A stretch of 64,000 nt of DNA, taken from an uncultured bacterium. GTDB taxonomy: Bacteria; Babelota; Babeliae; Babelales; Babelaceae. Below are positions 10,305 to 63,842 of the stretch, piece after piece. The notes below the pieces were generated by a model. That model was not told the DNA's origin. It ran no database searches and saw only the letters and a program-made list of their open reading frames with translations. The position numbers and the translations under genes were made by a program. How positions within the stretch are numbered: the first letter of the stretch is position 1; each line of letters starts with the position of its first letter. The stretch lies in NCBI GenBank assembly GCA_903831405.1, contig CAIKXM010000023.1, forward strand, positions 1,381 through 65,380. The letters run 5' to 3'.

Positions 10305-10381
10305 TGGTGCGCCCGACAGGAATCGAACCTGTGGCCTACAGATTAGGAATCTGTCGCTCTATCCTACTGAGCTACGGGCGC
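10305..10381 (-). tRNA. tRNA-Arg (anticodon CCT), CCA encoded
   Basis: Reverse complement is GCGCCCGTAGCTCAGTAGGATAGAGCGACAGATTCCTAATCTGTAGGCCACAGGTTCGATTCCTGTCGGGCGCACCA. It folds as a cloverleaf with a 7-bp acceptor, a 5-bp anticodon stem ACAGA/TCTGT and loop TTCCTAA. Confidence 0.9.
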
Positions 10382-10809
10382 ATACATATTTAAACTACAA
10401 TCATTTTCTTCCGTTGCGTCTTGTCCGACGAAGCTCATTTTTATGAGCGAAGTCTGGAAGCTACGGGCGCAATTGTACTGCTATTTTCTTATTAAAAATC
10501 TTTTCCCTACTTCGCGACTTACAAGCTACGAAGGGCTGGTTTGTGGCGACTTAGGATATCGTCTCGTCCGTCGTCGCTCTAACGAGCTATGCCGGAGACG
10601 TCTTCTTATCATTCTTTTTAATACTATCAATTCATTTAAGAAAACTGGCGTGCCAGTCGAAGTTCAACGCTTCGACTGAATAAAAAATTTTTATTAGTCC
10701 GCCTTCGCATAAAGCTACGGAACGGACAGCTTTCGCCATTATAACACTAAAATAGAATGTCAATTCCCTTAAAAAGTCTGGCCTGCCAGCTGAAGCCTTT
10801 GGCGAAAGC

Positions 10810-10886
<77 letters not shown>

Positions 10887-16919: not shown

Positions 16920-17311
16920 GGGGGCGTATCAGGCTTCGACGGGGTATGGATACTGCTGCTAGGGCATGCCGAGCTTTGATTTGAGTGCTCGTTAAAAAAA
17001 TGAATCAAACTATAAGTGCAAACGCACAATCTGGGTCAGTAATGACCCAACTTGCTTTAGCCTAAAAGCGCTTAGCAACTTGATATATCGCTTTACTATC
17101 AAATGGTATATCACGTATTACAAAACGATAGTCGCGCAGGGCAAGATTTCAAACTTCTTGTAGTAGCCTATGCATGTATACAACAAGAATAGTCGAGTGT
17201 GGCAATCATGTGTCAGTGCATGGTCGCAAACGTAACAATTGCTGACTGAGCATGGAGTACTAGCCGGTTGATGTATTTCGGACATGGGTTCGATTCCCAT
17301 CGCCTCCACCA
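16920..17311 (+). ncRNA. ssrA: tmRNA (one-piece)
   Basis: The 5' end GGGGGCGTATCAGGCTTCGACGGGG pairs with the 3' end GGGTTCGATTCCCATCGCCTCCACCA (7-bp acceptor with a G3:U pair). The tag reading frame 17018..17065 encodes ANAQSGSVMTQLALA followed by a stop. Confidence 0.95.
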
Positions 17312-18415: not shown

Positions 18416-20145
<1,730 letters not shown>

Positions 20146-24850: not shown

Positions 24851-25001
24851 ACGATAAGCAGTTAACCTTTACAAAAAAATGCTTTTTCCTATACTTAATA
24901 ATCCAATACGTAATGGAATATTAGCTTTTAAAAATACTACCGCTGCACATCTGCTGGTAGTTTTTTTCTTTTTTTATATCTTTTTGGAAGGATTCGTTAT
25001 T

Positions 25002-26399
25002 ATGATTTTAAAGGTTTTACAAGCTATAACACGACCAATGTTTGGCTCGTTCGAGCGCGAGGAATTCAAAAAATTTCTTCGTCTTGGTTTGATTTTTGCA
25101 ACCATCATCGGAACCTACTGGACGCTTCGCGTTCTTAAAAAGGCTGTTTTTTATAAACTTGTTGGTGCAGCTTTTATCCCTTTTGCAAAAACGGCTTCAA
25201 TAATCGGCCTTATCCCTTTGTTGATTTTTTATAACAAGCTTCTTGATCGTTACCCACGCGAAAAAATGTTTAACATCTTAGCAATCGCTTACGGCTCACT
25301 CTTCTTACTGGTTGGCGGATTATTATTAATCACCCAAGCTGCACCTGAAGTTATTGCTGCACGTACCGGTTGGGCTATGATAGGAACACAAGCTGTTGGA
25401 TATGGCTGGTATGTTTTGACCGAAACATTTGGTTCACTTGTTGTTGCATTGTTCTGGGCAATATCATCAGATATCACCAGTCCTGATTCTGCAAAAAAAG
25501 GTTTCTACTTGGTAACCGCACTTGCACAAGCTGGTGGCATTGTTTTACCTAACTATCTCAGCAAAATTCCACAATATTTCAACCTCCAAACTGATGCTGC
25601 AGTACTTTTTGTTACCGCACTACTTACCTTCTCATTATATTTCTCAATGAATTGGTTCTTTAAAAACACCCCAAAGAAATTGCTTGAATCGTTCAGCCAC
25701 CATGCAGCAAACGAAAAAGAAGTCGAAAAAGAACAAGAACCTGGATTCTTTGAAGGGCTCAAAATTCTTTTCCGTCACAAATATCTCCTTGGTATTTTTG
25801 CCGCAATTAGCATCTACGAAATTATCGTTACTATTTTTGACTTTAATTTTGACTTGTTAGCTAACGCTGCCTACTCAGGCGCAGAACTTACCGCATACCT
25901 TGGTTCATATGCTTCGTACGTAAATATCGTAGCATGTATTTGTCTTCTTTTAGGTATCAGCAACATTACTCGTTGGCTTGGTGTGAGCGTAGCGCTTGTT
26001 CTTATGCCTGTTATTATTGGCGGCGCATTCATAGGCTTTATTTCAATTCATAATTTACAGTTCCTCTTCTGGCTCATGGTTAGCTCAAAAGCTATCAACT
26101 ATGCCCTCAACGGACCTGCTATGAAGCAATTGTATATTCCTACAAGCAAAGATGCTCGATTTAAAGCACAATCATGGATCGAATCATTCGGTTCACGTGG
26201 AGCAAAAGAAAGTGGCTCTATTATTAATATGACACTTAATCCACTGGTATCACGCTTTGGTCAAATTGCTGGTCGTATTAAATACATCAACTTAGTTAGC
26301 GGAATAGGCCTAGTGCTTGTTAGCTGCTGGTTCTTTGTTGCGCTCTTCCTTGGTCGCACATACAACAAAGCAATCGCAGAAAAGAAAATTATTTGCTAA
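25002..26399 (+). CDS. ATP/ADP translocase (NTT/Tlc family nucleotide transporter), copy 1
   Basis: 465 aa with about 12 TM helices. It has ILR-type N-terminal helix 1 (GTYWTLRVLKK), GAAFIPFAKT and the C-terminal YIPTSKDARFKAQSWIESFGSRGAKESGS typical of NTT proteins. ATG 25002 (RBS GGAAGGA) gives the same length as copy 2. Confidence 0.8.
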   Translation: MILKVLQAITRPMFGSFEREEFKKFLRLGLIFATIIGTYWTLRVLKKAVFYKLVGAAFIPFAKTASIIGLIPLLIFYNKLLDRYPREKMFNILAIAYGSLFLLVGGLLLITQAAPEVIAARTGWAMIGTQAVGYGWYVLTETFGSLVVALFWAISSDITSPDSAKKGFYLVTALAQAGGIVLPNYLSKIPQYFNLQTDAAVLFVTALLTFSLYFSMNWFFKNTPKKLLESFSHHAANEKEVEKEQEPGFFEGLKILFRHKYLLGIFAAISIYEIIVTIFDFNFDLLANAAYSGAELTAYLGSYASYVNIVACICLLLGISNITRWLGVSVALVLMPVIIGGAFIGFISIHNLQFLFWLMVSSKAINYALNGPAMKQLYIPTSKDARFKAQSWIESFGSRGAKESGSIINMTLNPLVSRFGQIAGRIKYINLVSGIGLVLVSCWFFVALFLGRTYNKAIAEKKIIC

Positions 26400-26542: not shown

Positions 26543-27940
26543 ATGATTGTGTCATTTTTTCAAACTATAACACGGCCAATTTTTGGCTCATTTGAGCGCG
26601 AAGAGTATAAAAAGTTTCTTCGACTTGGTCTCATCTTTGCAACAATCCTGGGCACCTACTGGACCATTCGCGTACTCAAAAACGTAGTCTTTTTTAAACT
26701 TGTTGGTGCATCGTTCGTTCCTTTTGCAAAAACAGCTTCTCTGATTACCCTATTCCCGCTATTAATTTTCTACAACAAACTACTCGACCGCTACCCGCGA
26801 GAAAAGATGTTTAACATCTTAGCCATTGCCTATGGTTCACTCTTTCTCGTTGTCAGCTGCTTGCTCTTAATAACTCAGGCGGCTCCTGATGTTATTGCAG
26901 CACGCTCTGGATTGGCTCTTTTTGCTACACAATCTATTGGATATAGCTGGTATGTGGTAACCGAAACGTTTGGCTCACTCGTTGTTGCACTATTTTGGGC
27001 AATAGCATCAGATATTACCAAGCCCGAATCAGCAAAAAAAGGTTTCTACTTTGTCACCGCACTCGGACAAATTGGTAGTATCATTGCCCCCGGATTGCTC
27101 AGTAGATTGCCCGGATTACTCAATCTGCAAACAGATGCCATTGTACTCTTTATTGCAGCACTATTTACCTTTTCGCTCTACTTCTCTATGACCTGGTTCT
27201 TTGCACGTACACCAAAGAACTTACTCGAATCATTTAATGATGGAGCAGTAAACGAGCAGGAAATTGAAAAAGAAAATAAACCAAGTTTTTTTGAAGGCCT
27301 CAAAATTCTCTTTACGCACAAGTATTTACTCGGTATTTTTACCGTCATTAGCATATTTGAGATTATTGCTACCATATTCGATCTTAACTTTGATCTGCTG
27401 GCAAGCGCAACCCATTCTGGAGCAGCTTTGACTGCATATATTGGTGATTACGCCACCATGGTAAATGTTGTTGCATTTATATGCCTGATTGCCGGCATTG
27501 GCAACATTACCCGATTTCTTGGTGTTAGCGTTGCGCTTATCTTGATGCCTATTATTATTGGCTGCGCACTATTTGGCTTTGTGTCTCTTCATAGCCTGCA
27601 ATTTCTCTTCTGGCTTATGGTTGGATCAAAAGCTATTAACTACGCCCTTAACGGCCCTGCTATGAAGCAGCTCTATATTCCAACCAGCAAAGACGCTCGA
27701 TTTAAGGCACAGTCATGGATTGAGATGTTCGGATCACGATCTGCAAAAGGAAGCGGTTCTATTTTTAACATGAGTCTTCAACCGCTACAGTCACGATTTG
27801 GCGAAGTTGTCGGCCGTGCAAAATATATTACCTTTATTAGCTACATTGGCTTTGTTCTTGTTGCCTGCTGGTTCGTTGTCGCTATTTTCTTGGGTCGTAC
27901 ATACAACAAAGCAATCAAAGAAAAGAAAATTATTTGCTGA
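26543..27940 (+). CDS. ATP/ADP translocase (NTT/Tlc family), copy 2
   Basis: 465 aa, collinear with copy 1 and by eye about three quarters identical. RBS AGGGGGA. Confidence 0.8.
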   Translation: MIVSFFQTITRPIFGSFEREEYKKFLRLGLIFATILGTYWTIRVLKNVVFFKLVGASFVPFAKTASLITLFPLLIFYNKLLDRYPREKMFNILAIAYGSLFLVVSCLLLITQAAPDVIAARSGLALFATQSIGYSWYVVTETFGSLVVALFWAIASDITKPESAKKGFYFVTALGQIGSIIAPGLLSRLPGLLNLQTDAIVLFIAALFTFSLYFSMTWFFARTPKNLLESFNDGAVNEQEIEKENKPSFFEGLKILFTHKYLLGIFTVISIFEIIATIFDLNFDLLASATHSGAALTAYIGDYATMVNVVAFICLIAGIGNITRFLGVSVALILMPIIIGCALFGFVSLHSLQFLFWLMVGSKAINYALNGPAMKQLYIPTSKDARFKAQSWIEMFGSRSAKGSGSIFNMSLQPLQSRFGEVVGRAKYITFISYIGFVLVACWFVVAIFLGRTYNKAIKEKKIIC

Positions 27941-28052: not shown

Positions 28053-28904
28053 TTATCTACCTTTAGGCTCATTAGCAGCTGTACGAATGTGCCGCATGAA
28101 ATTTTCTAATTCTCTAATAAATCTATCAATTTTAACATATGAATCACTGGAGCCTATCTCAAAAGAAAATATTCTTTGAGCATTTTTAGAATGATCTATA
28201 AGTCTTTGAGCAAGATCTTTAACAGCCTTTCCTTTTGATTCATCAAGAAGATACTGGTGTGCATACTGAACTATAGCCTCTACTTTATTTTTAGCATTCT
28301 TATATTGAGTAATAGCTCCAGCAGACTGTCTTAATTCTGGAATCCAAGCGACATCAAGACCTTGCGTTACAGCTTCTATCTCTTTTGCTGAATACAGCTG
28401 ACCTATTTTTTGCAAAATATCGTTCGCTTTATCAATTGTTTTTTGAGCGGCTCTTTGCACCAACACATTTTCATCATGTATATATGCCTGCATACTATCT
28501 AAAATAGATTTCGCAGCGACCCTTGCTTGCTGAGCGACAAGATCAAAATTTCTTTTTTGAATTGTTGTTGGTTGAACAAAAATAACCGTTCTATCTCCCC
28601 CATCAAACCTACCAGCAAACTCCATAGCCTGATTTCTTGCTTCTTGCGCTTTCGCTAAAGCTTCTCTCATTCCATTAGTTCTTCTAGGAGCCATTGCCCA
28701 CATTTGCATATCATTATAACTTTGCACAGCTGATTGTGCTACCATTGCTGCTTCTTTTGCAGATTGACCTTTTGCACCTTCAAGTAAAGGTTCTACATCT
28801 CTCTCAATTTGTTGAATTTGTTTATAAGCTATATTATCCATACTTACGACTTGATAATTATATCCAAACAATACAACAATACTTAAAAATAATATTCTTT
28901 TCAT
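28053..28904 (-). CDS. hypothetical secreted helical protein
   Basis: ATG 28904 follows AAGGAGAG. The signal peptide is MKRILFLSIVVLFGYNYQVVSM. I recognise no family. Confidence 0.55.
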   Translation of the reverse strand: MKRILFLSIVVLFGYNYQVVSMDNIAYKQIQQIERDVEPLLEGAKGQSAKEAAMVAQSAVQSYNDMQMWAMAPRRTNGMREALAKAQEARNQAMEFAGRFDGGDRTVIFVQPTTIQKRNFDLVAQQARVAAKSILDSMQAYIHDENVLVQRAAQKTIDKANDILQKIGQLYSAKEIEAVTQGLDVAWIPELRQSAGAITQYKNAKNKVEAIVQYAHQYLLDESKGKAVKDLAQRLIDHSKNAQRIFSFEIGSSDSYVKIDRFIRELENFMRHIRTAANEPKGR

Positions 28905-28990
28905 ATCTCTCTCTCCTTTTTTTGTATAAACATTCTTACTAAACACACTCTTTAAAGACTACAAAGGCTTTAATAAAATAAATTTTCTAC

Positions 28991-29617
28991 TTATTTTATC
29001 TCATCCATGTCTTTCATTATCTTCTGCTCATCTTCTAGAGTTGTTGTCGTAACCGGGGTTGTAGCAATTGGTTCTGGGGTTGTAGCAACTGGGGTTGTAG
29101 CAACTGCAGGAATAGTTTGTTCCTGCGGCATCACTTGTGCCGGCAACTGAACAGTTTTCTGTTCTTCTGTAATGCCCTGATTTGCTTCTTTTGTATCAAG
29201 CGACAGCTCAAAATCTACTTGCTTGTCGCCCAATGACAGATGGCCAGTCATTTGTTTTGCTGCTTCGACTTGACCCTCAACTGGTTTAACTAGTTCTGGT
29301 TTTACCATTTCTGGTTGTGCAAGAGTTTGCTCTTCAATAGCTAGTCCTTCGGCAACTGGCTGCTCAGCAGGCACCATCTGAACTGGCACAACTTGTTCTT
29401 GATGAACAACAAGCACATCACCTGGCTGCTCACTGCCTACAATAGGTACACCCTGTGGCGTTGCAACCATTTCGCTTACTTCACCATATTCATACAGTTC
29501 ACCTTCTTGATCAGCGCTACGCTTTTCATACGAAGATCCCGTTTGCGCAATCTCTGCACGCACACAACCAAAAGCAATCACACATACAACCAATGCAAAA
29601 TAGTGGAACATTTTCAT
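28991..29617 (-). CDS. hypothetical secreted acidic P/V/Q/E-rich protein
   Basis: Signal peptide, low-complexity body, and ATTPVATTPEPIATTPVTTTT repeats near the C-terminus. Confidence 0.5.
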   Translation of the reverse strand: MKMFHYFALVVCVIAFGCVRAEIAQTGSSYEKRSADQEGELYEYGEVSEMVATPQGVPIVGSEQPGDVLVVHQEQVVPVQMVPAEQPVAEGLAIEEQTLAQPEMVKPELVKPVEGQVEAAKQMTGHLSLGDKQVDFELSLDTKEANQGITEEQKTVQLPAQVMPQEQTIPAVATTPVATTPEPIATTPVTTTTLEDEQKIMKDMDEIK

Positions 29618-29665
29618 AAAAATCCCTCCTTCTTAAAAAATTAAACAAACTAAACCACTCTTTTT

Positions 29666-30139
29666 TTATTTTTTACGTAAAAAGCACCAGCTGCCATCGC
29701 TTGCCTTTCCTATACGTAAGCACCTATTTTTTTGATCTTTTGCATGTTTCGCTGAACAATACTTCACACATTCAAAAACAGCTGTTGCATTGCTACCAAC
29801 CTGGCAATTAGCTGATCGACAAATAACTACAGAATGACCATCTTTAAACGTGCCGTAAAAACAGGCATAAGGCAGACAGCCTGACTCGTTTTTCTTTAAC
29901 AAACCAATATCGGTTTCACTAATATCAAGAGGTATCGATACACAACGCTCAAAATCCTGCGCTGCGAATGGATTTTGTTGCATAGTCAAAGATTGCTCAC
30001 TAGCTCCCGTAGATCGACCCATAAAAGGCGCTCCTGGAACGAGAAAATAATTACATGATTGGGTTGATTGCAAAAGCAATACATTGCCCAATAAAACACT
30101 CATGCATACCAGCCACATTTTCTTAATTAAAATTTTCAT
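29666..30139 (-). CDS. hypothetical secreted Cys-rich protein
   Basis: Signal peptide and more than 10 Cys in the mature part. I recognise no family. Confidence 0.5.
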   Translation of the reverse strand: MKILIKKMWLVCMSVLLGNVLLLQSTQSCNYFLVPGAPFMGRSTGASEQSLTMQQNPFAAQDFERCVSIPLDISETDIGLLKKNESGCLPYACFYGTFKDGHSVVICRSANCQVGSNATAVFECVKYCSAKHAKDQKNRCLRIGKASDGSWCFLRKK

Positions 30140-42764: not shown

Positions 42765-43280
42765 GTTATTTGTTTTATTCTTTCAAATCTATTTTTCATT
42801 CTTGTTATTTTGAAACATTAAATACACACGACCTGAAGGCCGTAAAATTCAGTTGCACAAACAAACTATCATTTTTTTTATTTCTATCTTTTGCATAAAA
42901 ACCACATTTTTACTCACCTACACTCTCTTATGCATGCATAGTAATAATTAAAAAATAAACATATCATGCATGCTCATCAGCAAGAGTTATACACACTTTT
43001 ATAGAAAATGTATTTGTGCAGAGATCTACTCTTCAAAAGATACCATGTTTACCAAGAGAGCGCCATGGGAATTCTATATAGAAAAAACCACACAAAAATA
43101 AAAACTCATAACAATATATTTCGGGACACTCTTATATGTTTTTATACATGCACAGTTTTTTTAATATTTGCCAACCTATAGGTACAAGCGTACTATACAA
43201 AGAAAGGTTTTAAAGAATTTTTCAGGCAATGTGGCCACTGTATTGGTATGGTATTTTTATATAGCAAAGGTGTGAAAAAC

Positions 43281-43760
43281 ATGAAAAAAAATATTTTGTT
43301 TGCTTTAGCAGCATTAGTAACTTTTTTTTCTATACAAACAATACATAGTATGCAAGAAGAAGAAAAACATGAAAAGCTTCCGGCATTAACTCGAAACAAA
43401 GATCTTATGCAAAAATTAGCTCATAATGACTTAATTGAGGCAATTCGTAATGATCAAATGACCGAAGTAGAATCGCTCATCGCTTCGGGCGTCGACATAC
43501 AATACAGGGATCATAATGGACATACGGCTCTCCATGAAGCAATAAAACAACTTAATACAAATATAATCATATTATTGTTACGGTATGGTGCCAATACAGA
43601 GATATCCAGCGGCACTGATGAGAGCATACTGTCATATGCAGATAGTATATCAGCAATAGAACGATTACAATCTTTGCAAAGCCCAAGCAGTCCCCAGCGC
43701 ACTATTATTGCACGTAATATTGTTGTACTTCTCTCAAAGTATGGTGCGCGTCGGGATTAG
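43281..43760 (+). CDS. secreted ankyrin-repeat protein
   Basis: ATG 43281 follows AAGGTG. The signal peptide ends ..IQTIHSM|QEEE. ANK repeats include GHTALHEAIKQLNTNIIILLLRYGAN. Confidence 0.8.
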   Translation: MKKNILFALAALVTFFSIQTIHSMQEEEKHEKLPALTRNKDLMQKLAHNDLIEAIRNDQMTEVESLIASGVDIQYRDHNGHTALHEAIKQLNTNIIILLLRYGANTEISSGTDESILSYADSISAIERLQSLQSPSSPQRTIIARNIVVLLSKYGARRD

Positions 43761-45050: not shown

Positions 45051-45127
45051 ATGTTTTTATATACTTTGACAAAAAGGTAAAAAACTCTTTTTTTGATTCT
45101 TGCTGGTAGCGGTAATTAAAAAAAATA

Positions 45128-45535
45128 GGGGTGAGCTATAAGCCGGATTCTGTAAAAGCAGAATTTAAATTAAAAACTGTTTTTTGGCAACCATTTATCT
45201 AGTGCGATATACCCGTGCATTATGTGGAACTTAACAAAAACCAACGCACTGTTTTATCTTGCTCCTGGTAGGGTTTGCACATGCAAGTAATATTACTATT
45301 ATGCATTGGATGCTCTTACCATCCATTTTCACCCTTACCCTCATCCGCTATATACGAATATATAACAGAAAAAAGGCGGTTTTTTTCTGTTGCACTAGTC
45401 CATGAGCTTACGCTCTCCTTGATTGCCCAAGGTACCATTGTTAAGTTGTGGAGTCCGGACTTTCCTCATCATCATAATTATACCGCCCTTTTTACAGAGC
45501 TGTATGTTATTAATAACGCGATTGCCCACTCACCC
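45128..45535 (-). ncRNA. rnpB: RNase P RNA, bacterial type A
   Basis: The reverse strand carries GAGGAAAGTCCGGACTCCACA, AGTGCAACAGAAA, GGGTAAGGGTGAAAATGGATGGTAAGAGCATCC, CCAGGAGCAAGATAAAA, CTAGATAAATGG and ACAGAATCCGGCTTATAGCTCACCCC. P1 pairs GGGTGAG with CTCACCC. Confidence 0.93.
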
Positions 45536-45625
45536 ATATATTTGTTTGTTTTTTATTCATATAATTAGTATATCATAACTGCACTATATGATCAATAAAT
45601 GCTTTTTTATATATTGAATTATTAC

Positions 45626-46573
45626 TTATACAAATGTGATAATCAATGCAATTATAAAACCATAGATCGCATTCGTATCAACAAACACTTGCCCAAGCAA
45701 ACTTATTTTAGAGAGCATCGGATGCTTATCTGGATACAGGGTAATATTTGTACAAGCTGCCCCAGAAACATTTCCTGATGCTATTCCCGTACCAATAGTA
45801 CTCAGTCCCATAGCAAATGCACTCGCAAGTGCCTTATAGCCACTAATAGGAGAGAAAAATCCTGCCGCGGGAAGCGTAGCAAGAAGAAGTCCAATAAGAA
45901 ATGAAAATAAAATAGGTGTCTCGATCAAAGCCTGACTAATAAAGGTGAATGAAATAATTTTTGCATATGATCGCTTGTTAATTCCAATGCTTTTGCATGA
46001 AGCTTGGGCAAATGAGCTCAATCCAATGATCGGCCCAATCGCACCAATTCCCATCACTATACCACTTGCAAGAAGCGTTAGCGCGAGAGAGAGTTGCGCC
46101 TGCGCACTCTGCATGATAATAACCCAGCTAATAATAAAGCCAAAAATTACTGGCGTCTGAATAAGCGAGAGGGTTATCAGTACAAGATTCATCATTTTTG
46201 TATGCTCAAAAGGTTCACGTGCTATAGCTATAATCGCATTTTGAGCCGGTTGAGCAGAACAAATTCCAATAACAAATCCACAGATACCTATAGCAAATAT
46301 AATGCCGCAGTGAGCAATTGCTTGATATACGGTTCCCGGAACTTTTAAACTCAACATCATGCTAATAATCAACGCTATGATCATTGTTGCTTCGATAACA
46401 GCGCTGCTAATAAAGTAAATTTTTCTAATCGCATTTGTAGCCTGAGGCTGTGTTTGCAACATATTAAGAGTAGTTGAATTAATTCGCCCCTGAGCAATGC
46501 TAACGCCTATTGCAGGAAGCACAAGAGCTGCTACTGCTGCAGTATAATGCAGCGCTGAAATAATAAGATCCAT
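45626..46573 (-). CDS. atpE: ATP synthase Fo c subunit, four hairpins fused (8 TM helices)
   Basis: Four consecutive helix-loop-helix units. The loops are TQPQ, REPFE, NKRSY and YPDKH. The helix-2 ion sites are IEATMI, LIQTPVI, LIETPIL and FVDTNAIYG. It is immediately downstream of atpB. Confidence 0.75.
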   Translation of the reverse strand: MDLIISALHYTAAVAALVLPAIGVSIAQGRINSTTLNMLQTQPQATNAIRKIYFISSAVIEATMIIALIISMMLSLKVPGTVYQAIAHCGIIFAIGICGFVIGICSAQPAQNAIIAIAREPFEHTKMMNLVLITLSLIQTPVIFGFIISWVIIMQSAQAQLSLALTLLASGIVMGIGAIGPIIGLSSFAQASCKSIGINKRSYAKIISFTFISQALIETPILFSFLIGLLLATLPAAGFFSPISGYKALASAFAMGLSTIGTGIASGNVSGAACTNITLYPDKHPMLSKISLLGQVFVDTNAIYGFIIALIITFV

Positions 46574-46600
46574 ATGAGTGTGCGCCCTTCTACTTTTTTG

Positions 46601-47410
46601 TTAATGTTCTGAGCTAAGACCAATACCAAGATAGGTTATACTGAGTGTCGAAAAAACAAATGCTTGAATAAAACCTTCAAAAAGACCAAAGAAAAAAATT
46701 AAAACAAGATTAAGACCACTGGCGATACCTATGATCTGCCAAATATAATGACTGTTAAGCAAGATCTTCCACAAACCCACGATCACAGACCCACCAAAAA
46801 TGTTTCCATACAGACGAAATGAAAGCGATATAACCGAGGCTAACTTACTGAGAAGCTCCAGAGGAAATGATAGGATAGCAGTAATAGTATTTATAATTAC
46901 TTTAACAACAAGAAATAGTATAGAAAAAATGCTGTATGAATGCATAGTCGTTGGCAATGGTGTCATGATAAAACCATGCACATACTGCATAAACCCTTGT
47001 GCTTTATAAGCCTCTTTTTGCGTGTAAAAAAATGAAATTAATGCAAGAGCAATCGTTGTATTAATATCTTTGGTAGGCTCTTCGCATCCGGGAATAATCA
47101 TAATAATATTACAGAAAAAAATGTAGATAAAAATCGCTGCAATAAAAATACAATATCTCTCATCAAAGCGTTGTGTTGCCTGATGCACCATGTCCATAGC
47201 CATACCCACGCCTTTGAGCACAATAGTATTGCCAATTGACCCCGGCTTATACAGATAATAACGAGCAATAAGAGCCAGTATAGTGATAAGTACGATAGTT
47301 ATCCATGTAGATACTATTACATCTTTTTGGAGATAAAAAAAAGCATTTGTAATTCCAAGGGATTCAAAGGGCGTCCATTTTTGGGTATTAAAGAGATCAA
47401 AACCTTCCAT
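46601..47410 (-). CDS. atpB: ATP synthase Fo a subunit
   Basis: Essential Arg motif SLSFRLYGNIFGG and a multi-TM profile. ATG 47410 (MEGFDLF..) is preferred over the 40-codon upstream extension. Confidence 0.88.
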   Translation of the reverse strand: MEGFDLFNTQKWTPFESLGITNAFFYLQKDVIVSTWITIVLITILALIARYYLYKPGSIGNTIVLKGVGMAMDMVHQATQRFDERYCIFIAAIFIYIFFCNIIMIIPGCEEPTKDINTTIALALISFFYTQKEAYKAQGFMQYVHGFIMTPLPTTMHSYSIFSILFLVVKVIINTITAILSFPLELLSKLASVISLSFRLYGNIFGGSVIVGLWKILLNSHYIWQIIGIASGLNLVLIFFFGLFEGFIQAFVFSTLSITYLGIGLSSEH

Positions 47411-47655
47411 AATATGGTTGATCCTTACGGTAATAGGGTACAATGGCGAATGCAAATTTTTTATTAATACAGTAACGTATAGTATAGCCCTGACGTAGGG
47501 GTATGGAAAGAGCAATAACAACTCTTTCAAATAGAATTATTACAACATATTTATTGTTGTTTTTTTGTTTTTATCTTATTTGCCGAGTATATTGAATGAG
47601 TAAGATATAATAAAATTGAACTAAACTATATCTGTAGAGCCTACAATAAAACACT

Positions 47656-47766
47656 TACAGCAGATTCTTTTAGCTTTGCAAAACGTACTGCTTTTAAAAT
47701 CACTTCACGGCAAAACTAATAGAACAGTGTAAAAAAATGAAAGACTGTTATGAAGCTCGCTATACA
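47656..47766 (+). repeat. intergenic element family 1, copy D
   Basis: acagcagattcttttagctttgcaaaacgtactgcttttaaaatcacttcacggcaaaactaatagaacagtgtaaaaaaatgaaagactgttatgaagctcgctataca. Confidence 0.75.
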
Positions 47767-47795
47767 ATAAATTTTTAAAACTGAAAGCCATAGCT

Positions 47796-49013
47796 ATGAA
47801 AAATTGCAAACTATTTTCAACACTGTTGGTAAGCTTAGTATGTATACACACTATTGCTCACTCGTACCAGATGCCTGTAAAAATGTATACGATTGCACCG
47901 AATTTTCGAGTAAACATAACACCAAGACAAATGCTTATTGGCGGCTGCGTGATAGCGGGAACTTTTCTTACACTATGGCTCGCCAAAAAGACACATTCAA
48001 CATATAAAGCCTATGCTATTAAAAAGCAGGAAGAAAAACAACGATATGAAATGCGTCTGGATAACTGTTTGCCAACACCTCCACCGCTTCCTCTTGCTGC
48101 CATTGGCCAACAGGCTCAAACGTCTGCGCTCGAAGGTATAACACTCGAACATCTTGAAAAATTTTTCAACACAATTTGCTTCGACGACCAACAAAGTGAG
48201 CAAACTTCTTTTGAGACTATGTGTCAAAAAGCAAACGACCGCATTGTACTATTCGAAAAGCACTGCTTTTTGCATTATGCGCATAAAATATGCATAGATA
48301 ATGGCAACAGACTATCTCAACTACACAATATGTTATGTAAAGAATATCGTGGCACACTGCAAGCATTTGCCTTGCTCAAGGGTATAGAAGGAACAAAAAA
48401 AATTAAGCTCATCGTTACTCCTTTGTATATACCGGCAAATCTTCGAGTAACAACCACACCAGGAATAGACCTACCCCAAGAGTCTACTGCTGACTTTGTA
48501 GTACGACGATTATGTAATAATAAATATATTGCCGCTGCTGATTATGTATATTCTATTATAGAGCGTATTGATACCTTGCAAAAAAGTTATTCAAAAATAG
48601 ATCTACAGCCATCCACTAAGCCTACAGAACAAATAATGCTCGAAGAATTTTCTACTTCTATTTTTGAACAAATAGATATATATAAAAACACTTTACTTGA
48701 TGTACATGCAGCGCTTATACAAAATCCTCTTTACATAAGAGAAATTGAGTTGCGCAATCAGGAGCGTGAATTAGCTGCACGTATAGAAGCAGAGCGCCAA
48801 AGAACTCAAGCCATAGAAAAACAAGCAGAAGCAACCCGACAACATACATACGCTATGACAAAACAAGCAATAGAAAGCACAGCAGCCACTATGCGACATA
48901 CGGAAGCACTTCGACAGCATACTGCAGCACAAGAAGAACACAATCGACTTGAGAGAACACGATTGCACCACACACCACAACAAGGACAACGCCATTTTGT
49001 TCCACAATTCTAA
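47796..49013 (+). CDS. hypothetical membrane-anchored protein with Q/E/R-rich coiled C-terminus (paralogue of 49324..50496)
   Basis: MKNCKLFSTLLVSLVCIHT leader, a TM helix, a conserved Cys-containing core, and a tail RNQERELAARIEAERQRTQAIEKQAEATRQHT. Confidence 0.6.
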   Translation: MKNCKLFSTLLVSLVCIHTIAHSYQMPVKMYTIAPNFRVNITPRQMLIGGCVIAGTFLTLWLAKKTHSTYKAYAIKKQEEKQRYEMRLDNCLPTPPPLPLAAIGQQAQTSALEGITLEHLEKFFNTICFDDQQSEQTSFETMCQKANDRIVLFEKHCFLHYAHKICIDNGNRLSQLHNMLCKEYRGTLQAFALLKGIEGTKKIKLIVTPLYIPANLRVTTTPGIDLPQESTADFVVRRLCNNKYIAAADYVYSIIERIDTLQKSYSKIDLQPSTKPTEQIMLEEFSTSIFEQIDIYKNTLLDVHAALIQNPLYIREIELRNQERELAARIEAERQRTQAIEKQAEATRQHTYAMTKQAIESTAATMRHTEALRQHTAAQEEHNRLERTRLHHTPQQGQRHFVPQF

Positions 49014-60951: not shown

Positions 60952-61677
60952 ATGTTTATGCATAGCTTTATAAATAAAAAAACATTTTTAACACAACTCA
61001 TTATGAGCCTTTTTTTGCTGCCAAACGTATTACACGGCATGCAAAACAGAGATCCTGATTTTTCACAGGTAATAAATACTCTTCACATGCTTGGAGCCCT
61101 TGTACAATACGAATCTCTTACAAGCAGAGAAACAATTGAGTCATTTAAAAAAAGAATCTACAAATCTATTCTGTCATTTAATTGCGAAGAAGCATTAGAG
61201 TATCTCGAGCAACTTTTCGCAAACAATATACCTATTGAACGCAGAGAAGCAATACAAGAAATAATAATACAAGTAGAACAGTTCACTATTATAGCTAAAT
61301 ACGCAAAAGATCATGCAATACAATACAATCGAAACTTTATGCCAGCAGCACATATGCCTATCTTTGAGCTTGTTATTAGAATGCAACAAGATGGCTTTGT
61401 TATGGCTAAAAATCTCATTGAAGGCTCAGATATTGCGCATTTATTAAATCAAGAAAATAACGGATGGTTATACTATGCAACTATGTGGCATAATAAACCT
61501 CTTGTTGAATGGTTGCTAGAACAAGCTAATCAGCAGCATATACCTATAATTAATATGCAAAACAACAATCAAGAAACAGCTCTTGATATAGCAGAAGATA
61601 CTGCTATAGGAAATCCTGTAATTGCCCAAACGTTGCGTAAAAATAGAGGCCTGCATGGCAGAACAATACACGATTAA
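60952..61677 (+). CDS. secreted protein, ANK-tail family (member 3)
   Basis: Leader ..NVLHGM|QNR. C-terminal part GWLYYATMWHNKPLVEWLLEQA...QETALDIAED...LRKNRGLHG. The start may be ATG 60958. Confidence 0.7.
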   Translation: MFMHSFINKKTFLTQLIMSLFLLPNVLHGMQNRDPDFSQVINTLHMLGALVQYESLTSRETIESFKKRIYKSILSFNCEEALEYLEQLFANNIPIERREAIQEIIIQVEQFTIIAKYAKDHAIQYNRNFMPAAHMPIFELVIRMQQDGFVMAKNLIEGSDIAHLLNQENNGWLYYATMWHNKPLVEWLLEQANQQHIPIINMQNNNQETALDIAEDTAIGNPVIAQTLRKNRGLHGRTIHD

Positions 61678-61758
61678 CAAAAATCTATCCCATTGGCACC
61701 TAGAAAACATTTTAGATTAATAAAATTAATAAAACATAACAACAAACCAAAGAATATA

Positions 61759-62499
61759 ATGATACACAAACTTTTTTTATCGATCAGTGTAACAATCTTC
61801 CTGCTTTGCAGCTCCAATGTGCTACACGCTATGGATCTTTTCACTACCCTAGAGCAATGTGCTACACTTCCACAACCTGAAGGATCTTCACACAGACAAC
61901 ACATAGACGATGCAACCGATCAAGAAATAAAAGCAATATACGAAAACCTTTTATATCTTAGCGTTGCCGAAGCTACAGAATATTTAGAATACGAACAAAG
62001 AAAGTGCTCTTCGATTCAAAAAAGCGAACTGCTGCAAAAAATGGTACAGCAGTTTCAGGATTTTAAAATAATCTACAGTAGATATCTAGAAACTCTTAAC
62101 ATGCATAATCGAGCAATAGCTGTTGATGCAAATATGTGTGAGCTTTTAATCAAAGACATGCAACAAGATGGACTCACATTCATAAAATATATTATTACTA
62201 CCGTAGGTATGCAATACCAATTTACTAATAATGCAAATCGTGGATGGCTGCATTTTGCAACCATATGGCGCAACGAAAAGCTTATACAATGGTTGCTCAG
62301 CGAGTCATATAAACAAACATTTTCAAACAACTCTCTTATTAATAAGCAAGACGATAATGGCCACACTGCTCTTGATGAAGCGGTATTACTAGGCGTAACA
62401 TATAATTCTATTGCAAAAATATTACGCAGTAATGGTGGTGTGCATGGGACTAGAAGGCCAAGCATGATGGAAATATTAGTACATCATTGGACTGAGTGA
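61759..62499 (+). CDS. secreted protein, ANK-tail family (member 4)
   Basis: ATG 61759 (the track ORF opens at TTG 61693). Leader ..NVLHAM|DLF. C-terminal part GWLHFATIWRNEKLIQWLLSES...GHTALDEAVLLG...LRSNGGVHG. Confidence 0.7.
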   Translation: MIHKLFLSISVTIFLLCSSNVLHAMDLFTTLEQCATLPQPEGSSHRQHIDDATDQEIKAIYENLLYLSVAEATEYLEYEQRKCSSIQKSELLQKMVQQFQDFKIIYSRYLETLNMHNRAIAVDANMCELLIKDMQQDGLTFIKYIITTVGMQYQFTNNANRGWLHFATIWRNEKLIQWLLSESYKQTFSNNSLINKQDDNGHTALDEAVLLGVTYNSIAKILRSNGGVHGTRRPSMMEILVHHWTE

Positions 62500-62542
62500 A
62501 CGATGAAGAAAAAATATATTATATATGGGGGAAAGGTAATTA

Positions 62543-62833
62543 ATGGATAAAAAAATAATATTAATGAGCATAGCAATCTATTTTTGTGTAACATATAATG
62601 CAATACATACTATGGAAGCAGTAGAAATAAAATATCTTAATTGTTTTCAAGATATATACCTGTTAAACACGCTCACTACAGGCACAAGTCAAGAGTCGCT
62701 TGCCATTAGAGCGGCAATAGAATCTTTCAAAAATTCAACAGAAGCTTTTAATAATTTACAAAGAGAGCAACTCAAACACATACAACGTTTAGCAGAACTA
62801 TCAGCAATTACTACCACCTGTTTACCAGATTAA
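62543..62833 (+). CDS. small hypothetical secreted protein
   Basis: RBS GGGGGAAAGG. Leader ..YNAIHTM|EAVE. 96 aa with no ANK tail. Confidence 0.45.
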   Translation: MDKKIILMSIAIYFCVTYNAIHTMEAVEIKYLNCFQDIYLLNTLTTGTSQESLAIRAAIESFKNSTEAFNNLQREQLKHIQRLAELSAITTTCLPD

Positions 62834-62897
62834 ATAACTACAATATATATTTAAAAAATCAAAATATCTCAAATATAATCGATAGATATAATAAAAT

Positions 62898-63842
62898 ATG
62901 ATCACGAACAAAAAAATAATAACATTGCTGCTTATTATCAACATTTGCTTTATCTCTCTATTACACCCAATGGAACAAACAACTCGCAGGGTAGATGTAG
63001 AAAATCACATCATCAAAACAGAAATAGAAATAAAAAAGCCAGGTGCTACTCGAAGCGAACAATTAAATGCCACTCAATATGCAGAATTAATTGCCATTCT
63101 AAAGAAACATCTAATTGCCATGCGCGCGGCAAACGATATATCCCGTGACTCCATGCGAATGGAAAACGATATATACCGTGAAAATTTGAAACCTACAATA
63201 AGAAATCGCACAACTACACAACCTGAATATACTGACAAGGAAGCAATAGAATGTACAAAAGAAATATATACACATATTGTATGCCTTAATCTTACGCAGG
63301 CATTGGAATATCTCAATAGTTTATACATAAGCGATATCTCTATACAGAAAATGAATATAGCCTGGAAAATATTGAAGCAAATGCAACAGTTTAAAATTAT
63401 GGTGGAATATTGCATAACTAATCATAAGCACGAGACTCTATACTATAACTCAAACAACTTTAGCTATTTTTTCGTCGGCACAAATCCTAATGCTCCTATT
63501 TTTGAACTTGCCATTAAAATGAAAGAAGATGGCCTTGTTATGGCGAAAGATATCATTGCAAGTACCGGCATTACCTATATGTTTAACCAAGAAAACAAAA
63601 GAGGCTGGCTATATTACGCAACCATTTGGGATAACGATGAACTGGTAAAATGGTTGCTCGAACAAGCCTGCGAAGAACACTTAACTGGTATTTGTTTCAT
63701 TAATACAGAAAACTCTTATCATCAAACAGCACTCGATGTCGCAGAAGATGGTTCTGTAGGAAATTCTGTTGTTGCAAAAATATTACGCGCACATGGCGGA
63801 TTACACAGCAGAGATATACCTAAACATCTAAAAATAGATTAA
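62898..63842 (+). CDS. secreted protein, ANK-tail family (member 5, longer N-terminal region)
   Basis: Leader ..SLLHPM|EQT. C-terminal part GWLYYATIWDNDELVKWLLEQA...HQTALDVAEDG...LRAHGGLHS. Confidence 0.7.
   Translation: MITNKKIITLLLIINICFISLLHPMEQTTRRVDVENHIIKTEIEIKKPGATRSEQLNATQYAELIAILKKHLIAMRAANDISRDSMRMENDIYRENLKPTIRNRTTTQPEYTDKEAIECTKEIYTHIVCLNLTQALEYLNSLYISDISIQKMNIAWKILKQMQQFKIMVEYCITNHKHETLYYNSNNFSYFFVGTNPNAPIFELAIKMKEDGLVMAKDIIASTGITYMFNQENKRGWLYYATIWDNDELVKWLLEQACEEHLTGICFINTENSYHQTALDVAEDGSVGNSVVAKILRAHGGLHSRDIPKHLKID

Follow-up and report, generated by a model that had tools for sequence, protein, structure and literature searches.

How many ion-binding sites the c ring has determines the gear ratio of ATP to membrane potential. 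The main evidence for the evolution of an ATP synthase into an ATP-driven pump, the V-ATPase, comes from natural exceptions to the rule of one site per hairpin, and to our knowledge the sole F-type example has hitherto been the single c1 subunit of Acetobacterium woodii. A stretch of 64,000 nucleotides from an uncultured bacterium of the family Babelaceae (contig CAIKXM010000023.1 of assembly GCA_903831405.1; hereafter the window) carries, next to the gene for the F-type a subunit (atpB), an open reading frame (ORF) that an earlier note on this DNA had read as four fused c-subunit hairpins, one of them without its ion-binding carboxylate. This locus raises the question of what kind of rotor such a protein builds and whether the enzyme makes or spends ATP. 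The 315-residue protein, named c4 here, is a multi-hairpin c protein of the F type in which three carboxylates and one Gln are conserved. The fusion is neither an assembly artefact nor a one-off but is universal in the sampled Dependentiae. On balance, c4 probably builds a proton-coupled rotor with three sites per unit that works as an ATP-driven pump.

Architecture of the four-hairpin c subunit

The atpE-like c4 gene lies on the minus strand at 45626..46573 and encodes 315 residues followed by a stop codon. The c-subunit profile PF00137 (ATP-synt_C; InterPro IPR000454) matches the protein with E=2.7e-30 and 104.8 bits against a cut-off of 24 and aligns to four separate stretches of it, which is what the earlier note had predicted for this profile. 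The F-type c models of NCBIfam also align in four stretches, and the whole-protein scores against the NCBIfam equivalog models for single c subunits are all under their cut-offs. Consistently, residues 11–72, 80–154, 165–231 and 247–314 each match a different solved c subunit in a search of the Protein Data Bank (PDB). The AlphaFold model, built with a 33-sequence alignment, consists of eight long helices arranged as four hairpins, the number of helices that had been expected, with a pLDDT of 94.7 and a pTM of 0.92. A protein 100% identical to c4 is present in public collections.

The membrane-embedded Asp or Glu of helix 2 is present in hairpins 1, 3 and 4, and hairpin 2 has Gln at this position. 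Hairpin 1 (residues 1–78; 46340..46573) contains Glu61 in helix 2, Gln28 in helix 1 and a TQP loop. Hairpin 2 (residues 79–157; 46103..46339), in which Gln139 replaces the carboxylate, retains a canonical A-R-(Q/E)-P-F loop. Hairpin 3 (residues 158–237; 45863..46102) has Glu218 of helix 2 within an I-E-T-P motif and a degenerate loop, G-x-N-(R/K). Hairpin 4 (residues 238–315; 45629..45862) has Asp299 in helix 2, Tyr304 at +5 and an x-N/Y-P loop. All four are encoded on the minus strand, and the codons of the critical residues lie at 46391–46393 (Glu61), 46157–46159 (Gln139), 45920–45922 (Glu218) and 45677–45679 (Asp299). The motifs quoted in the earlier note, IEATMI, LIQTPVI, LIETPIL and FVDTNAIYG, start at residues 60, 137, 216 and 297, and the quoted loops TQPQ, REPFE, NKRSY and YPDKH are all found in the protein, so that its reading of the ion positions as E/Q/E/D holds.

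Pairwise hhalign comparison of the four hairpin profiles indicates that all are mutually homologous, with a probability of 98–99%, at an identity of only 13–25%, which indicates that the fusion is old. Hairpins 3 and 4 are the closest pair, followed by 1 and 4 and then 2 and 3. A duplication order from c through c2 to c4 is expected to make hairpin 1 resemble 3 and hairpin 2 resemble 4, and the profile–profile scores give no clean pattern of this kind. Hairpin 4 is the closest to a canonical single c subunit, and the single-hairpin c of a non-Dependentiae locus described below (L069) scores best against the hairpin-4 profile.

Conservation across Dependentiae

A locus scan restricted to one genome per species, with an alignment of eight sequences as the query, recovered 59 Dependentiae/Babeliales loci. 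Where the sequence titles bear a lineage, it is Dependentiae, Babeliales, Babeliaceae, Vermiphilus or TM6; the remaining titles are generic ('uncultured bacterium', 'uncultured Pseudomonadota'), and the complete genomes AP025250.1 and CP074345.1 are among the 59. Each locus has exactly one uninterrupted c4 frame (59/59), and an a-subunit ORF abuts or overlaps the upstream end of c4 in every case. A word-indexed search retrieved 76 homologs, nearly all of 304–325 residues and one of them named 'candidate division TM6'. A profile search of 1.84 billion cluster representatives (50% identity) gave 259 clusters at E<=1e-30, and the majority of the 150 that were listed are about 315 residues long.

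It is scarcely conceivable that c4 is an artefact or a pseudogene, that is, a gene in decay or four c genes run together through a mistake in sequencing or assembly. The frame is unbroken in 59 independent genomes, complete ones included, and in about 130 database sequences, which settles the concern of the earlier note about frameshifts or missed stop codons; the key residues are strongly conserved, the confidence of the AlphaFold model is very high, and nothing was found in favour of such an origin.

The ion-binding positions were counted in 127 non-redundant c4 sequences. Hairpin 1 has Glu in 124 and Asp in 3, hairpin 2 has Gln in 120, Glu in 6 and Met in 1, hairpin 3 has Glu in 125 and Gln in 2, and hairpin 4 has Asp in 104 and Glu in 21. 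The combined patterns are EQED (98), EQEE (15), EEEE (4), DQED (3), EEED (2) and EQQE (2), so that E/Q/E/D(E) accounts for 113/127. Because the family alignment contains no other conserved membrane-embedded acidic residue in hairpin 2, this site is truly dead. The R-Q-P loop of F-type c subunits contacts gamma and epsilon. This loop is best kept in hairpin 2 (R in 126, Q in 122 and P in 124 of the 127) and is largely retained in hairpin 1 (Q in 117 and P in 126; family consensus N-R-Q-P), but is replaced across the family by G-x-N-(R/K) in hairpin 3 and by x-N-P in hairpin 4.

With 29–34% identity to the window protein, the four E/E/E/E sequences belong to the most divergent part of the family, and one of them occurs in an AtpI-atpB-c4 layout. 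The fusion is therefore older than the Glu-to-Gln change in hairpin 2.

The earlier note allowed that the fusion might already be catalogued as common in this lineage. It is indeed common there, under the generic database names 'subunit c/K', 'F-type subunit c' or 'hypothetical protein', but is not catalogued in the literature searched.

Comparison with known rotors

Ordinary F-type c subunits, such as those of Escherichia coli, Bacillus PS3 and Ilyobacter tartaricus, have the same two-helix fold as each hairpin of c4, with a Gly/Ala-rich helix 1 and an Asp or Glu in helix 2; the (R)QP loop of c4 hairpins 1 and 2 and the position of the gene after atpB are also shared. However, they are single hairpins of about 70–90 residues with one site per hairpin, whereas c4 is a chain of 315 residues with four hairpins.

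The V/A-type proteolipids (Enterococcus hirae NtpK, the eukaryotic c and c'' subunits and the K subunits of Methanocaldococcus jannaschii and Methanopyrus kandleri) share with c4 the multiplication of hairpins and, often, the loss of carboxylates. Such multiplication with site loss has classically been tied to a lower ion/ATP ratio and pump function (PMC2359735, PMC9171764). Reviews list hairpin numbers of 1, 2, 3 and 13 for archaeal c subunits, with 3 in the K subunit of M. jannaschii and 13 in that of M. kandleri, and one two-hairpin F-type subunit, c1 of A. woodii (PMC9171764, PMC2359735). The V/A-type enzymes differ from the present system in their stator (subunit I/a) and in these hairpin numbers, since c4 has four hairpins and an F-type a partner. 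V-type K models match c4 at E about 1e-7 and the F-type c models of NCBIfam at 1e-27. Because the F-type models fit best and the a, beta and epsilon partners are F-type, c4 is not a V/A-type proteolipid. Assignment to the N-ATPases was also rejected: c4 reaches 75.6 bits with TIGR03322, where the cut-off is 130.85, and 60.6 with altF1_A, where it is 302, the N-ATPase gene order atpD-C-Q-R-B-E-F-A-G differs from the c4 locus, and no AtpR or AtpQ was seen.

The closest match of known structure is A. woodii c1 (PDB 4bem chain J), which is the best PDB match of c4 both by sequence (E=2.5e-9) and by structure (Foldseek E=7.7e-5), with V-type c/K subunits following it in the Foldseek list. Both proteins belong to F-type enzymes and have several c hairpins fused in one chain, and a Gln of c1 sits opposite the carboxylate position of c4 hairpin 4 in the sequence alignment. 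The two differ in that c1 has two hairpins with one site and c4 has four hairpins with three. All Foldseek matches cover only half of the c4 model, with a query TM-score of at most 0.44, which indicates that no solved chain has such a four-hairpin architecture.

Sole ring subunit or minority subunit of a hybrid ring

The A. woodii ring is composed of one c1 and nine single-hairpin c2/c3 subunits, and the enzyme is coupled to Na+ and synthesises ATP (PMC9171764). By analogy, one or a few c4 chains could sit within a ring that consists largely of ordinary single-hairpin c subunits with genes elsewhere in the genome. Like c1, c4 is a multi-hairpin c subunit with a Gln-replaced carboxylate in an F-type context. 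Unlike the A. woodii system, it has no adjacent single-hairpin c gene, it has an incomplete Na+ motif, and it belongs to an organism that imports ATP.

Two non-Dependentiae loci speak for this possibility. In L069 (GCA_942491525.1, 8688–17324; a genome with 55% GC), the 406-residue protein P0270 is a five-hairpin c subunit with the pattern E/Q/Q/Q/Q, in which only the first hairpin has Glu, and it lies in an operon of the order AtpZ-?-a-c5-c-b'-b-delta-alpha-gamma-beta-epsilon with an epsilon of 138 residues. In L068 (36–2602), the 324-residue protein P0076 is a four-hairpin c subunit with the pattern E/Q/Q/E, and a normal c gene and two b genes come after it. In both classical atp operons the multi-hairpin gene is directly followed by a single-hairpin c gene of 82–83 codons. 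These proteins look like enlarged A. woodii c1-type hybrid rotors, unlike a sole ring subunit, and no description of this enlarged layout was found in the literature. They are detectably homologous to c4 (24% identity for P0076) and share with it a Q-T-P-x-I-F motif, which occurs in their internal hairpins and in hairpin 2 of c4. A comparison in search of positional orthology, whose profiles had been trained on some of the very sequences tested, gave no more than a resemblance of their last hairpin to hairpin 4 of c4 and of their internal hairpins to hairpins 2 and 3. No four-fold F-type fusion is described in the literature searched, but four- and five-hairpin c genes also occur in ordinary atp operons of other bacteria.

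A hybrid ring in Dependentiae would gain further room from the scattering of their atp genes, because a single c gene could sit with the b, delta, alpha and gamma genes, wherever these lie. However, neither the ±10 kb around c4 in the 59 Dependentiae genomes nor the 64-kb window gave a significant single-hairpin c match (best E=0.011), whereas the same hairpin profiles detect the single-hairpin c subunits of L068 and L069 at E 1e-10 to 1e-22, and single-hairpin c queries detect them at E 1e-38 and 1e-48. In addition, c4 occupies the canonical slot right after atpB in 59/59 genomes, and it keeps three of four carboxylates under strong conservation, whereas the hybrid-type proteins keep 2 of 4 (L068) or 1 of 5 (L069). 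A hybrid rotor in Dependentiae is thus unlikely, and a ring in which c4 is the principal subunit is preferred here.

Apart from these hybrid-type proteins, metagenomic c-like proteins of 968 residues with 13 hairpins (P0247), 1139 residues with 15 (P0263), 524 residues with 7 (P0277) and 434 residues with 5 (P0261) have Glu in all hairpins and resemble the 13-hairpin whole-ring subunit of M. kandleri.

The coupling ion

The Na+ ligand set of the I. tartaricus c ring (PMC2359735) comprises Gln32, Glu65 and Ser/Thr66, and the equivalent positions were examined in each hairpin of c4. At the Gln32 equivalent, hairpin 1 has Gln in 76 and Glu in 29 of the 127 sequences, and hairpins 2, 3 and 4 have Ser, Leu and Ser. 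The position following the carboxylate (+1) is generally Thr (Thr/Ser) in all four hairpins, although hairpin 1 of the window protein has Ala, and Tyr at +5 is found in hairpin 4 only. The complete ligand set is not present at the active sites as a group: hairpins 3 and 4, two of the three active sites, lack it. For this reason H+ is, from the residues, the more likely coupling ion.

A Na+-coupled rotor nevertheless has points in its favour that weigh against a proton rotor. Hairpin 1 combines Gln or Glu at the Gln32 equivalent with an E-T pair, Thr or Ser stands at +1 throughout, and hairpin 4 adds Tyr at +5, so that Na+ coupling is possible; moreover, several Na+ antiporters are among the reported genes of Babela (PMC4378268). 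Given Leu and Ser at the Gln32 equivalents of hairpins 3 and 4, and Ala at +1 in hairpin 1 of the window, we regard Na+ coupling as distinctly unlikely.

The rest of the enzyme and its direction of operation

The a subunit that would face the c4 ring is encoded directly upstream by atpB (46601..47410, minus strand; 269 residues; PF00119 E=1.4e-32), and it contains the stator Arg motif SFRLYGNIFGG. The probable start is the ATG at 47410 with an AAGGA Shine–Dalgarno-like site upstream, in an open frame that reaches a TTG at 47530, and 27 nucleotides separate the end of atpB from the start of c4. Downstream, the RNase P RNA gene rnpB (45123..45537, minus strand) follows 88 nucleotides past the c4 stop on the same strand. 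These are the neighbours that the earlier note had named. In the relatives, atpB-c4 is likewise a self-contained unit: downstream of c4 there is no atp-like gene in the relatives examined, and upstream there is sometimes an ORF of 83–102 residues. This small ORF reaches the Pfam threshold for AtpI (PF03899, E=2.1e-5) in an E/E/E/E lineage (L067), and of three relatives tested only one has a recognisable AtpI-like gene upstream of atpB; the window has none. A terminator and promoter scan around atpB-c4 gave nothing exceeding shuffled expectation.

The F1 genes found in the window are atpD (18649..20136, minus strand), which encodes a beta subunit of 495 residues (PF02874, PF00006 and PF22919), and atpC (18416..18652, minus strand), which encodes an epsilon subunit of 78 residues. 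They form a separate transcription unit, preceded by ybeY and flanked on the other side by an OmpH-like gene, and the gene after atpC is on the opposite strand. The distance to atpB-c4 is 25.5 kb, in agreement with the 26 kb given before. The beta subunit is 69–74% identical to its best database matches, several of which are named Dependentiae, Babeliaceae or Babela, and atpD-atpC is also isolated in Babela and three other genomes. The absence of b, delta, alpha and gamma genes from the window, as the earlier note had it, was borne out by a Pfam sweep of the gene-called ORFs of at least 150 residues (minus those overlapping a longer ORF) and the non-overlapping ORFs of about 96–149 residues, which detected none of the alpha, gamma, delta (OSCP) and b families in the 64 kb, and by phmmer with beta as the query, which detected no alpha paralog. 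The same note had suggested a search of the relatives for the fusion and for the remaining atp genes. The fusion is found at all 59 loci, and the ±10 kb around c4 (59 genomes) and around atpD (five genomes) contain none of the alpha, gamma, delta and b genes.

The C-terminal helices of epsilon are the part that inhibits ATP hydrolysis in the E. coli and Bacillus enzymes. In the window, atpC matches only PF02823, the N-terminal beta-sandwich, and its product lines up with the N-terminal portion of epsilon chains of known structure, nearly all of which are 133–148 residues long. An epsilon of 78–80 residues that consists of the beta-sandwich only is encoded in all five Dependentiae genomes compared, namely the window (78) and four others with 79–80 residues (L065, 11453–11695; L066, 11422–11661; L070, 11482–11724; L071, 11431–11673).

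The window also encodes two TLC/NTT ATP/ADP translocases on the plus strand at 24879–26399 and 26543–27940 (PF03219, E=2.4e-25 and 5.6e-20), where the earlier note had placed two NTT genes. TM6/Dependentiae have been described as lacking an electron transport chain, importing ATP and probably running the ATP synthase in reverse (PMC4776705, PMC6561590), and an ATP synthase is part of the published reconstructions of TM6 genomes (PMC4776705). A reverse-running ATP synthase fits the window's NTT genes and its brake-less epsilon. The suggestion of the earlier note that an ATP-driven pump is favoured is in line with these papers and with the truncated epsilon.

A proposed proton-coupled rotor with three sites per unit

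From the architecture, residues, synteny and phylum-wide distribution described above, we infer how the ring may be composed and how large it may be, which ion it would carry, in which direction it would turn and what adaptive value this may have. In the proposed mechanism, short periplasmic linkers would join four c hairpins into one eight-helix building block of the ring of an F1Fo ATPase, and two, three or four such units (8, 12 or 16 hairpins) would close a ring that rotates past the a subunit encoded next to c4. Hairpins 1, 3 and 4, with Glu, Glu and Asp, would load and unload the coupling ion at the a-subunit Arg, and hairpin 2, with Gln, would pass the a subunit without an ion. Each c4 would therefore move three ions per turn; because F1 handles three ATP per turn, the ion/ATP ratio would equal the number n of c4 copies, 25% below that of a normal ring of equal size.

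Such an enzyme would run mainly in reverse, with ATP hydrolysis building the membrane potential required by the transporters. Host-ATP import together with the published lack of a respiratory chain implies that the enzyme would mainly hydrolyse ATP; the ATP brought in by the NTT translocases would be the ATP that it consumes, and an epsilon without the inhibitory C-terminal domain would mean that a brake on hydrolysis has been removed. The lower ratio would allow a given ATP/ADP ratio to sustain a membrane potential about one third higher than with an all-Glu ring of equal size. By our own arithmetic from the relation ΔGp = -nFΔp (quoted in PMC9171764), four ions per ATP would correspond to about 130 mV at 50 kJ/mol and about 155 mV at 60 kJ/mol, three ions to about 173 and 207 mV, and two ions to about 259 and 311 mV. 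A bolder and rather unlikely possibility would be a rotor made of c4 units only, for which the most attractive arrangement would be (c4)3, with 12 hairpins, 9 proton sites and exactly 3 H+/ATP, whose three-fold symmetry would match F1.

Several points weigh against the proton-coupled, pump-directed reading, in addition to the Na+ ligands of hairpin 1 discussed above. No alpha, gamma, delta or b gene was found near c4 or atpD in the genomes compared, and a complete F1Fo enzyme is therefore assumed from the literature and from the 69–74% identity of beta to its best database matches. An unlinked single-hairpin c gene, for example with atpF, atpH, atpA and atpG, could leave c4 as a minority subunit in the manner of A. 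woodii. Enzymes with fewer sites per hairpin, such as those with V-type c, still synthesise ATP according to Litty and Muller (PMC9171764), and site loss is thus no proof of a function restricted to pumping. Finally, since the most divergent members still have all four carboxylates and the fusion is older than the site loss, gearing was not the original reason for the fusion. The lower ion/ATP ratio proposed in the earlier note is accordingly only partly upheld: one carboxylate (Gln139) is indeed lost, but the shift amounts to only 25%, and the loss postdates the fusion.

These last two facts also speak for another explanation, namely that the fusion serves chiefly to aid assembly or to fix the stoichiometry and that the hairpin-2 Gln is near-neutral, with no adaptive role in gearing. 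A fusion of this kind would fix the ring size at a multiple of four and lessen the need for assembly factors in a reduced genome, and the patchy occurrence of the AtpI-like gene, in one of three relatives tested and not in the window, can be read in the same way. However, Gln139 is kept in 120/127 sequences that are only 24–58% identical to the window protein, which argues for selection on that residue and not drift, and A. woodii c1 also has a Gln, aligned with the carboxylate position of c4 hairpin 4. An assembly device with a neutral Gln is therefore somewhat unlikely, and the proton-coupled pump with three sites per c4 remains the preferred reading.

Literature and significance

No description of a four-hairpin c subunit or of a peculiarity of the Dependentiae c subunit was found in the open-access literature searched, in keeping with the earlier note, which knew of no four-fold F-type fusion; an earlier account may exist elsewhere. 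Neither the TM6 nor the Chromulinavorax papers list the ATP synthase subunits in their supplementary tables. A large survey of F-type c rings discarded sequences longer than 250 residues (bioRxiv 10.1101/2024.02.27.582367), a filter that would have removed the c4 family and is thus a blind spot; metagenomes hold further c proteins with 4, 5, 7, 13 and 15 hairpins. Because multi-hairpin subunits with lost sites are already known elsewhere, what appears to be new here is a four-hairpin F-type fusion that extends across a phylum.

In a phylum of obligate energy parasites, the only apparent c gene encodes a subunit with four hairpins and three sites, and epsilon is truncated. Since relatives with all four sites survive beside the forms that have lost one, the old notion that a pump arises by duplication and site loss, recently challenged (PMC9171764), can be tested by comparison. 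If a rotor of c4 units only is real, it would be the first natural F-type rotor composed entirely of multi-hairpin subunits and a bacterial replay of the proposed F-to-V transition, in which fusion followed by site loss turned an ATP maker into an ATP spender; the E/E/E/E forms would then represent an intermediate that has survived. For several Dependentiae, such as Babela (PMC4378268) and Chromulinavorax (PMC6561590), isolation or co-culture with a protist host is reported, which in principle opens the way to purifying the enzyme and measuring its ring size, ion and direction.

Neighbouring genes and other observations

Downstream of atpD-atpC, four Dependentiae genomes have a gene for a HerA-like ATPase of 531–549 residues with DUF87 and HAS-barrel domains (L065, 11688–13337; L066, 11665–13260; L070, 11717–13315; L071, 11666–13285). 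This gene begins before atpC ends in three of the genomes, and 4 nucleotides past atpC in L066. The possibility that this protein is a diverged alpha subunit was rejected, as it is a bona fide HerA (PF01935 and HAS-barrel, with matches to HerA structures in the PDB). In the window, no HerA-like gene was found at the position next to atpC or elsewhere in the 64 kb. Another set of candidates, the consecutive ORFs at 28053–30139 (minus strand), encodes proteins of 157, 208 and 297 residues, sizes like those of b, delta and gamma. They were rejected as atp genes: they have no Pfam match, and their translations have a signal-peptide or low-complexity look, with signal-peptide-like N-termini and, in the middle protein, numerous repeats of P, Q, E, V and T.

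Upstream of atpB in the window, 47411–47795 lacks the AtpI-like small ORF of relatives and contains just a 40-codon in-frame extension of atpB above the likely ATG. Next come two tandem paralogs on the plus strand (47796–49013 and 49324–50496; 39% identity, E=8e-98). Both are without a Pfam match, and both have an N-terminal signal or transmembrane segment and a C-terminal repeat region rich in Q, E and R. Together with 50532–52004, they separate atpB from a Mur-ligase-like gene. In the relatives L002 and L004, just one ORF of 83 residues lies between the Mur-ligase-like gene and atpB.

Eukaryote-like repeat proteins are typical of the effectors of intracellular bacteria. The window encodes a set of them (5517–7292, minus strand; 43248–43760, plus; 60952–63842, plus; 56332–56790, minus), which includes a WD40 protein of 591 residues, several ankyrin-repeat proteins and a weak F-box match. 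The window further contains dnaA (8517–9941, minus strand), a tmRNA gene (16920–17311, plus) and two tRNA-Arg genes (10305–10886, minus), besides rnpB. The presence of dnaA suggests that the replication origin is possibly near, and the tag encoded by the tmRNA is ANAQSGSVMTQLALA.

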